Sequence record: PV340564
From: Escherichia phage PhiR44_2
DNA: 35,994 nucleotides
Direction: 5' to 3' (one strand)
The position numbers were made by a program, and so were the translations under genes. The notes below the pieces were generated by a model. That model made no database searches and was not told the DNA's origin. It was given only the letters and a program-made list of their open reading frames with translations. Below, one piece after another: positions 34,009 through 34,592 of the stretch. Positions within the stretch are counted from its first letter, which is position 1. Every line of letters starts with the position of its first letter.

Positions 34009-34037
34009 TTGCCGGAGTAACAAAAAAGAGATAGATT
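34009..34037 (+). promoter_or_regulatory. Putative sigma70 promoter of the hok-like mRNA (TTGCCG-17-TAGATT)
   Basis: -35 at 34009-34014 and -10 at 34032-34037; predicted start about 34044 coincides with the 5' element complementary to the mRNA 3' end. Confidence 0.4.
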
Positions 34038-34059
34038 ACGCGCGGGTGCCTTTCGGCTG

Positions 34060-34323
34060 ATGGTCGGAGGGAATACCCGAAGGCCAGATGTGGAAAGGCC
34101 CCGGAAAACATTTCTGTTTAACCGAGGCCCTAACCGCATTACCTTGACAAGTGAAAGGTTAGCGCCTCTCCGAAAAAGGAGCAAGTGCTATGTCGCAAAA
34201 ATCGCTTACGGCCATCACGTTCTGCGTGACGGCAATCCTCATCATCTGGATGCTGCACGGTTCGCTGTGCGAGATACGGATGAGCTTCTGGGGAGCGGAG
34301 TTTGCGGCGTTCTTACAGTGTAA
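34060..34323 (+). CDS. mok: mok-like overlapping reading frame (translational coupler for hok)
   Basis: 87-aa ORF in another frame spanning the hok start, as in hok/mok/sok loci. Confidence 0.45.
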   Translation: MVGGNTRRPDVERPRKTFLFNRGPNRITLTSERLAPLRKRSKCYVAKIAYGHHVLRDGNPHHLDAARFAVRDTDELLGSGVCGVLTV

Positions 34324-34330
34324 GCAGTAA
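34190..34330 (+). CDS. hok: Hok/Gef-family type I membrane toxin (46 aa), not in the ORF track
   Basis: Translation MSQKSLTAITFCVTAILIIWMLHGSLCEIRMSFWGAEFAAFLQCKQ; single TM and SLCEIR...AAFL signature of Hok/Gef; 5' element GGGTGCCTT (34044-34052) complementary to 3' element AAGGCACCC (34387-34395). Confidence 0.8.
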   Translation: MSQKSLTAITFCVTAILIIWMLHGSLCEIRMSFWGAEFAAFLQCKQ

Positions 34331-34340
34331 GGAAACCGCG

Positions 34341-34360
34341 ACGGGGGAGTAATCCCCCGT
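34341..34360 (+). terminator. Stable 3' hairpin of the hok-like mRNA (ACGGGGGA-gtaa-TCCCCCGT)
   Basis: 8-9 bp GC-rich stem directly downstream of the hok stop. Confidence 0.4.
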
Positions 34361-34592
34361 CAATCGGTTGCCAGGGTAAGGTCGATAAGGCACCCTATCT
34401 CACAGCTCTAAATGCAAAAATTCCATGAAACCGTGGGATTTTTGCATCACATACTGATACAGACCAGCCCTTCTATATGCCTCACTCTATACCAGCTAAT
34501 CAATTGACACTTATCAATAAAAATAAATCTGATAAAATCAAAATGTTTTGTAACAAATATCAACTCGTATTAATCCAAAGGAGGCGGATTAC

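Follow-up and report, generated by a model that had tools for sequence, protein, structure and literature searches.

Does the short region that follows ogr near the right end of Escherichia phage PhiR44_2 (sequence record PV340564) encode a complete hok/mok/sok locus and, if the mok part is not a gene, what remains of the system? Within the 35,994-nucleotide (nt) stretch analysed here (hereafter the window), an initial annotation made from the sequence had described a complete hok/mok-type type I toxin locus lying between ogr and the right attachment site, attR. The hok/sok family mechanism has served as a textbook example since the 1990s, and the window locus fits it in most respects: with a probability of about 0.88, the region from ~34009 to ~34447 is, in our reading, a type I toxin-antitoxin cassette of the hok/sok kind, which the prophage carries as a moron at its right end. 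The carrier itself is very probably a P88-like prophage of E. coli (genus Xuanwuvirus, P2 family). The toxin, mRNA and predicted antisense anatomy of the initial annotation stands, while its mok part does not, as the frame is not conserved, and we class the locus as belonging to the hok/sok type, with no conserved mok, rather than as a full hok/mok/sok locus. The locus is not new, being annotated both in RefSeq and in phage genomes, and is ordinary apart from this non-conserved frame.

The toxin gene (34190-34330, plus strand) encodes a peptide of 46 amino acids (aa), MSQKSLTAITFCVTAILIIWMLHGSLCEIRMSFWGAEFAAFLQCKQ, and is preceded by a Shine-Dalgarno (SD) sequence, AAGGAG (34176-34181), which was read directly from the DNA, is 86% conserved and lies 8 nt 5' of the AUG. 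This open reading frame (ORF) had been proposed to encode a Hok/Gef-family toxin, and it does belong to that family. Pfam PF01848 (HOK_GEF) matches it at 29.9 bits (cutoff 22, E 4e-7), residues 7-44 of the peptide aligning with profile positions 5-42 of 42, and the best phage-family match is PHROG 251 ("MokW-like host killing", E 1.3e-22); the nearest NCBIfam model is HokA, with a score under its cutoff. Alignment with Hok of plasmid R1 and HokC of K-12 (taken from the K-12 record) shows that the family-defining residues are kept: M1, C12, T14, C27-E28, E37, A39 and F41 are common to the three proteins, and L26 and C44 are also found in the window peptide, although they are not invariant in this alignment. 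The conserved positions listed in a preprint (M1, a Cys, a Thr, L-C-E, a Glu and a second Cys or Tyr near the C-terminus; bioRxiv 10.1101/2025.08.07.668861) are likewise all found in the peptide. The median dN/dS is 0.13 (456 pairs among 32 distinct alleles), and the peptide is therefore under purifying selection; its ORF is intact in every copy examined. The same preprint reports toxicity for 42 of 45 diverse Hok coding sequences and that prophages are enriched for hok genes (bioRxiv 10.1101/2025.08.07.668861), and the window peptide is presumably toxic as well.

Evidence for the toxin mRNA comes first from Rfam. The model RF01794 matches positions 34044-34203 on the plus strand over its full length (48.9 bits, E 3.3e-9). 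This model is labelled "sok", but it in fact describes the hok mRNA leader: its K-12 match lies on the hokC strand, opposite the annotated sokC, scores 118 bits and ends at the hokC AUG. Strand calls made with RF01794 are thus to be read as calls of the toxin leader. The window leader is a divergent relative of the RF01794 seed sequences. As the model starts at 34044, the mRNA 5' end would be located where the initial annotation had predicted it. A putative hok promoter stands immediately upstream, with a -35 box TTGCCG (34009-34014), a 17-nt spacer and a -10 box TAGATT (34032-34037) ending 6 nt before the model start. A scan for consensus promoters left this candidate below threshold, and we placed it by homology and conservation, its -10 box being retained as TAnAnT in divergent homologues.

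The second line of evidence is the long-range pairing that is expected to lock a full-length hok mRNA. The 5' end of the predicted transcript carries a tac element, GGGUGCCUUUCGGCU (34044-34058), for which we found three alternative partners, and the exact complementarity reported earlier between GGGTGCCTT (34044-34052) and AAGGCACCC (34387-34395) is indeed present. When the 357-nt RNA 34044-34400 is folded, as had been suggested, it is much more stable than expected (z = -7.5), and its minimum-energy structure is closed by pairing of nt 1-15 with 34380-34395. These 3' positions form the candidate fbi element (GGUCGA, a U bulge, then AAGGCACCC), which makes a 15-bp helix with tac in this fold. 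The exact 9-mer alone is weak evidence, because AAGGCACCC is also found on the plus strand at 1453-1461 and 15593-15601 (4 matches in total, against 0.31 expected); these additional copies, for which no link to the hok locus was found, are probably due to chance. The tac-fbi argument thus rests on position and on conservation in homologues. The fbi site is among the three best non-self partners of the 5' 22-mer in 14,382 windows of the 36 kb, the other two lying near 18141-18146 and 6906-6921. The duplex energy lies about 3 standard deviations below that obtained with shuffled 3' regions (z about -3), although such shuffling is a weak control because the region is rich in G+C.

Among homologues, RNAduplex closes tac on fbi in all 35 distinct 5'/3' combinations (-24.5 to -35.9 kcal/mol). 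As RNAalifold, run on the full alignment, preferred a local 5' hairpin to the 5'-3' closure, we tested the long-range helix explicitly: among 25 distinct variants, 92.5% of the cells are occupied by standard pairs, versus 40-52% after displacement of the 3' strand by 1-3 columns. Loss of the complementarity in homologous loci would have spoken against the proposed fold-back; instead, the pairing is kept in 25 of 25 distinct variants. Substitutions in the fbi core are C-to-U changes that yield G.U pairs (GGCACUC, GGCAUCC, GGUACCC), and the second tac-fbi helix shows changes of register among homologues. The long-range pairing of the R1 paradigm is thus found here with almost no two-sided covariation, and conservation of both tac and fbi supports a predicted fold-back of the hok-type kind.

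Variation of the helix is one-sided because the 5' strand is essentially invariant, and this invariance is itself explained by the fact that the same bases have two other conserved partners, at 34094-34102 and 34062-34078. The first is a ucb-like box, AAAGGCCCC (34094-34102), which is invariant in 16 homologues and can pair with either tac or the GAGG box. It pairs with 34044-34053 in the RNAalifold consensus, and the same tac-ucb pairing is recovered in a 62-nt fold and in the Rfam model, the hairpin being stable (-35 kcal/mol, z = -4.5); in the full-length fold, ucb pairs instead with CCGAGGCC at 34122-34129. The second partner appears when the 3' 28 nt are removed: tac then pairs with 34062-34078, in a hairpin of the metastable type. 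A dcb-like box, GUUAGCGCCUC (34158-34168), pairs with GAGGCCCUAAC at 34124-34134 in a consensus helix of RNAalifold (columns 116-128 with 151-162) that 14-16 of the 16 sequences retain. The leader thus offers the alternative tac pairings together with the ucb-SD and SD-dcb helices of the R1 paradigm; in R1, the hok mRNA forms a set of mutually exclusive helices of this same kind (PMC9841398). Mean pairwise identity among the 16 homologues is 95% for tac, 100% for ucb and 97% for the block shared by dcb and the Sok -10 box, against 79% for the coding sequence.

Two further structures are found downstream of the toxin gene. The GC-rich hairpin that had been noticed after the hok stop is present at 34334-34369 and conserved in homologues, as a G+C-rich stem-loop (AACCG / GACGGGGGA ... 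UCCCCCGUC / CGGUU) in which three base pairs show compensatory change: GC is replaced by AU in 5 sequences, AU by CG in 3 and AU by GC in 3. It is likely to be the protective end of a processed mRNA. Farther on, a terminator-like hairpin with a 16-bp stem and a U-run in its 3' arm (34412-34447; -22.2 kcal/mol, z = -6.65) is the probable 3' end of a full-length mRNA of ~400 nt. This hairpin lies outside the conserved cassette, and P88 has a classic terminator of its own at the same relative place.

A type I system also requires an antisense RNA. The initial annotation expected a Sok-like RNA on the minus strand around 34040-34130 and could not place its promoter; a minus-strand gene upstream of hok is supported by our analysis, albeit at another position. 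Using RF01794 as a common ruler, we transferred the ends of K-12 SokC to the window: the annotated ends correspond to model positions 106 and 44, and thus to 34148 and 34088, so that the best prediction is an RNA of ~61 nt running from ~34148 to 34088. It would consist of a 17-nt single-stranded 5' tail (34148 to 34132), a hairpin (34131 to 34095) and a UUUCC tail. The predicted RNA folds at -26 kcal/mol (z = -5.2), and its hairpin is present in 26 of 26 distinct variants; one stem position forms a U.G pair in the minus strand, where the mRNA strand would have a C.A mismatch. A putative Sok promoter is made of a -35 box TTGCTC (34184 to 34179), a 17-nt spacer and a -10 box TAACCT (34161 to 34156), the last base of which precedes the SokC-equivalent 5' end by 8 nt. 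As a consensus scan had found nothing, homology and conservation guided the placement of this promoter too: the -10 block shows 97% conservation and TTG in the -35 box does not vary, which places them among the most conserved bases of the locus. The -35 box of this predicted cis-antisense gene overlaps the hok AAGGAG, as it does in R1. On the plus strand, we rejected a perfect TTGACA (34144-34149) as a promoter element: it has no usable -10 box downstream, and close relatives have TTAAGCA instead.

The segment that the Sok 5' tail would recognise (34130-34148) behaves differently from the other control boxes. With a mean pairwise identity of 68%, it is among the most variable stretches of the locus, whereas the other boxes reach 95-100%. 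If co-resident copies must avoid cross-talk, a variable tail target would be expected, and the variability may reflect diversification of antisense specificity among such copies.

Several observations weigh against reading the region as a hok/sok cassette. The RF01794 score of 48.9 is below the gathering score of the family (59), so the leader is missing from a gathering-threshold scan. The 5' strand of the tac-fbi helix does not vary, so that its support comes from conservation and one-sided G.U changes instead of covariation; a single pair is changed on both sides, in Salmonella enterica subsp. diarizonae, and a shuffle control is not exceeded. The two hexamers of the Sok promoter match the consensus at only 3 of 6 positions each, which explains why the consensus scan missed them, and the terminator has a tail of UUU only. 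The antisense gene and its promoter are predictions drawn from the sequence. Finally, Hok can be synthesised in R1 only if mok is translated as far as the hok SD (PMC9841398), so a locus devoid of mok might be poorly expressed or silent.

The last point brings us to the 87-aa frame (34060-34323), one base out of phase with hok and open in the window, which had been considered to be positioned like mok. Its -1 phase relative to hok is that of mok in R1. Could this frame, or a shorter form starting at AUU 34138 or UUG 34144, be a working mok that opens the hok start and whose initiation is blocked by Sok, as in the canonical hok/mok/sok scheme? Its phase and its stop near the hok stop resemble those of R1 mok, no stop interrupts the frame between the leader and the hok AUG in the window and in the commonest P2-type allele, AUU 34138 stands at the position of the mokC AUG, and GAGG is conserved. 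This SD-like box (34124-34127) is the positional homologue of the mok SD of hokC and R1, as it corresponds to RF01794 positions 84-87, which in K-12 precede the annotated mokC AUG. However, an in-frame stop between GAGG and the hok AUG, with no start after it, closes the frame in 18 of 38 distinct leaders, including that of the 93% identical P88 cassette. In 27 of 27 leader variants, no ATG, GTG or TTG occurs 5-13 nt after GAGG, and neither a conserved short leader ORF nor a conserved near-cognate start after GAGG was found in the leader variants. The ATG at 34060 is embedded in the 5' (tac) hairpin, 64 nt upstream of the GAGG box, and is lost in some homologues and out of frame through indels in others; the downstream stop of the frame varies among alleles, and Pfam and PHROG searches of the 87-aa ORF gave no match. 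An overlapping mok with an SD-proximal start, as in the R1 paradigm, is thus not supported, the position aligned with the mokC AUG being AUU in the window. We consider a working canonical mok improbable and the mok assignment unsupported, if not wrong. Given the frame closures, the missing start after GAGG and the lack of a family match, we regard this subfamily as a form of hok/sok that lacks a conserved mok.

How then would Hok be made? Translation probably starts directly from the AAGGAG site of hok once the leader opens, and ribosome loading at the GAGG box could act as an alternative gate. A more elaborate and tentative proposal, which we doubt as a whole but find less unlikely than a functional mok, is that the 46-aa prophage Hok subfamily is a naturally mok-less branch of hok/sok. 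GAGG would then be a standby or loading site, or an element of RNA structure, Sok would occlude GAGG and trigger cleavage by RNase III, and the Sok-tail target would give each of up to nine co-resident copies its own specificity. If so, Sok action would be nearer to the logic of tisB/istR-1 than to translational coupling, a parallel that is just as tentative as the proposal it belongs to. The preprint cataloguing Hok proteins states that its analysis did not extend to Mok (bioRxiv 10.1101/2025.08.07.668861).

The distribution of the cassette bears on whether such a locus is still maintained. A blastn search with the 421-bp cassette gave matches in 197 phage records and, at 60-99% identity, in 1750 of the 5426 complete E. 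coli genomes searched, with up to 9 places per genome. Among the E. coli matches listed, all those that overlap hok are annotated "Hok/Gef family protein", and most of the phage matches listed are annotated Hok/Gef or "MokW-like host killing". The cassettes of P88, 500465-2, P884B11 and Shae_phiSM are 93-97% identical to that of the window. An identical 46-aa protein (WP_000078916.1, Hok/Gef family protein) is encoded in strain 401651, in the order ogr - hok - Zn-ribbon - TagO - flk. Less similar copies, at 74-82% identity, occur in lambdoid and Stx prophages, beside lom or between gpJ and the tail-fibre gene. Almost none were found beyond Escherichia and Salmonella: an alignment-based scan of genome contigs gave only 6 loci, 3 of which are from implausible hosts (Planococcaceae, Vagococcus, Xanthomonas) and probably come from contaminated contigs. 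A scan of IMG/VR gave 80 loci, all with the identical protein, and allele diversity was thus drawn from the E. coli collection, the IMG/VR loci adding little.

Two side observations emerged from these scans. Many IMG/VR prophage contigs (~40, plus L021 and L023) end exactly 3 nt past the hok stop, which indicates that automated prophage boundaries cut there and lose fbi and the cargo genes. In E. coli N51 (L097, positions 1-603), two tandem Hok/Gef genes lie ~330 bp apart and adjoin serS.

Such a distribution allows us to weigh the possibility that the cassette is a decaying, silent relic, in which the loss of mok entailed the loss of Hok expression and which simply hitch-hikes on the prophage. 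There is no conserved mok here, while Hok of R1 requires mok translation (PMC9841398), and the chromosomal hok loci of K-12 are reported to be mostly inactive, as cited in the preprint (bioRxiv 10.1101/2025.08.07.668861). On the other hand, the ORF shows neither disruption nor relaxed constraint (intact throughout, dN/dS 0.13), conservation is higher in the non-coding control elements than in the coding sequence, the fbi pairing is kept by pair-preserving substitutions, and the cassette has spread to P2-like and lambdoid prophages, at different genome positions, in nearly a third of the E. coli genomes searched. A relic is thus the least probable of the alternatives considered here, slightly less probable even than a canonical mok.

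Under the preferred reading of a hok/sok cassette, the conserved anatomy and the R1 model together suggest the following sequence of events. A weak promoter would produce a stable mRNA of ~400 nt starting at 34044. In the full-length mRNA, tac (34044-34058) would be locked to fbi (34380-34395) and ucb would sequester the GAGG box, so that neither translation nor antisense binding would take place. Slow 3' trimming to the 34334-34369 stem-loop would remove fbi, whereupon the 5' end would refold onto ucb (34094-34102) and the leader would open. A short, unstable minus-strand antisense RNA (~34148 to 34088) would pair with the opened leader, and the mRNA would be destroyed or silenced. When transcription stops, through prophage loss or host shut-off by an infecting phage, Sok would decay first; the 46-aa Hok would then be made, insert into the inner membrane and kill the cell.

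What such a device would be selected for is best considered together with its surroundings. Upstream, hok is preceded by a gpD-like gene (32455-33696) and by ogr (33739-33999), which matches Pfam Ogr_Delta, and attR is located at ~35971, so that hok does stand between ogr and attR of a P2-like prophage, as the initial annotation had it. Nevertheless, hok and attR are not adjacent, being separated by ~1.5 kb of AT-rich cargo. This cargo (34593-35823, 34-37% GC) comprises two genes, one for a Zn-ribbon membrane protein of 110 aa (phrog_6586) and the other for a VasI/TagO-like protein of 297 aa (phrog_1848; Pfam PF11319, E 6e-25). The final 6 kb of the window are 94-98% identical over their full length to phages 500465-2, Shae_phiSM and P884B11, the deposited genomes of which also contain the Zn-ribbon and TagO-like cargo, and P88 matches the first 4.4 kb of this segment at 94-98% identity; all four phages are Peduoviridae of the genus Xuanwuvirus. 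In the same slot after hok, E. coli EC291 carries Com and a DNA methyltransferase, and P88 another small gene. As the cargo genes differ between relatives, we regard the place beside hok as a variable moron slot. P2-like phages carry accessory or defence genes at such prophage-end places.

These surroundings make it plausible that the same device serves a purpose other than addiction, namely abortive infection or exclusion of lytic phages, or assistance with lysis and phage release. The cassette adjoins the variable cargo slot, and a precedent is provided by hokW-sokW of prophage Sp5, which after induction accelerates growth arrest and causes twice as much phage to be released (PMC8621323). 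This is the only prophage hok/sok for which we found experimental work, and the outcome pointed to help with lysis and release rather than to post-segregational killing (PMC8621323). Against such a role, hok genes are not enriched near defence systems according to the preprint (bioRxiv 10.1101/2025.08.07.668861), no PADLOC model matches Hok, the Zn-ribbon or the TagO-like gene, and the sequence does not distinguish between roles. We thus judge a role other than addiction to be a serious contender, at slightly less than even odds. Prophage addiction is plausible for the cassette, and exclusion of lytic phages equally so. A stable self-silenced toxin mRNA combined with an unstable antisense RNA would respond to any stop in transcription.

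The ends of the window help to define the prophage. Homology to the K-12 backbone begins at 35971 (35971-35994, the first 23 nt of pdxB, minus strand), which is why we place attR at ~35971; the prophage is thus inserted in pdxB right at its 5' end, upstream of flk. As the left 192 nt have no K-12 counterpart, the window seems to start inside the element. A direct repeat, GTGG(A/T)CAC-TGC-GTGGACAC, occurs at 193-211, beside int, and at 35907-35925, near the right end. It was rejected as an att core, as the corresponding empty-site construct matched no genome across the junction. The two copies are probably arm-type sites for Int binding, one on each arm of attP, an interpretation in line with the arm-site consensus of P2 Int. 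Directly after the TagO-like gene, a long perfect palindrome (35848-35899; ACAGATAACACAAAGCCCG...CGGGCTTTGTGTTATCTGT) attracts several spurious weak Rfam matches and looks like a bidirectional terminator. In the early region, Rfam matches over the gathering score are found on the plus strand for isrK (4370-4444) and C4 antisense RNA (4480-4567), which together are a P1/P7-type antisense immunity RNA pair in a P2-like prophage.

Overall, the locus illustrates that a type I toxin-antitoxin cassette with long-range RNA pairing can be recovered from sequence alone, and coordinates are now supplied for the predicted Sok-like RNA and its promoter, which annotation pipelines omit. A 2026 preprint already lists over 32,000 hok loci and describes their over-representation in prophages (bioRxiv 10.1101/2025.08.07.668861). 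The apparent absence of mok in a very widespread subfamily is the only lead worth following. The lack of a conserved mok in a widespread prophage Hok subfamily bears on the control of Hok translation outside plasmid R1.

How does the window locus compare with known systems? With hok/sok (parB) of R1, it shares a Hok/Gef peptide of the C..T...LCE...E..AAF pattern, the tac, fbi, ucb, SD-like GAGG and dcb elements and the post-stop stem-loop of the published model (PMC9841398), as well as a predicted full-length mRNA of ~400 nt. It differs from R1 in its shorter toxin (46 aa versus 52 aa, 33% identity), its leader with an Rfam score below gathering, the lack of a conserved mok ORF and its location in a prophage instead of a plasmid. 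With hokC/mokC/sokC (gef) of K-12, the leader aligns over the whole Rfam model, the SokC ends map to 34148 and 34088 and the mokC SD maps to GAGG at 34124-34127; however, the mokC AUG is AUU in the window, protein identity is 26%, and the K-12 locus, unlike that of the window, is followed by IS186. The hokW-sokW system of the Stx2 prophage Sp5/933W is likewise a prophage-borne hok/sok type I system, for which the toxin, the antitoxin and the dependence on RNase III and Hfq have been shown experimentally (PMC8621323), and PHROG 251, to which the window peptide is closest among phage families, is named after MokW/HokW. HokW nevertheless has 51 aa, begins with MKQQKAM (primer YO-357) and has another leader sequence, compared with the 46 aa of the window peptide, whose type also occupies other places in lambdoid prophages (beside lom, or between gpJ and the tail-fibre gene). 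The closest relatives are the cassettes of P88, of other Xuanwuvirus phages and of E. coli RefSeq genomes, which occupy the same place after ogr with 93-98% nucleotide identity. They show no substantial difference from the window cassette, most of the variation among alleles being found in the target of the Sok 5' tail (34130-34148) and in the downstream cargo.

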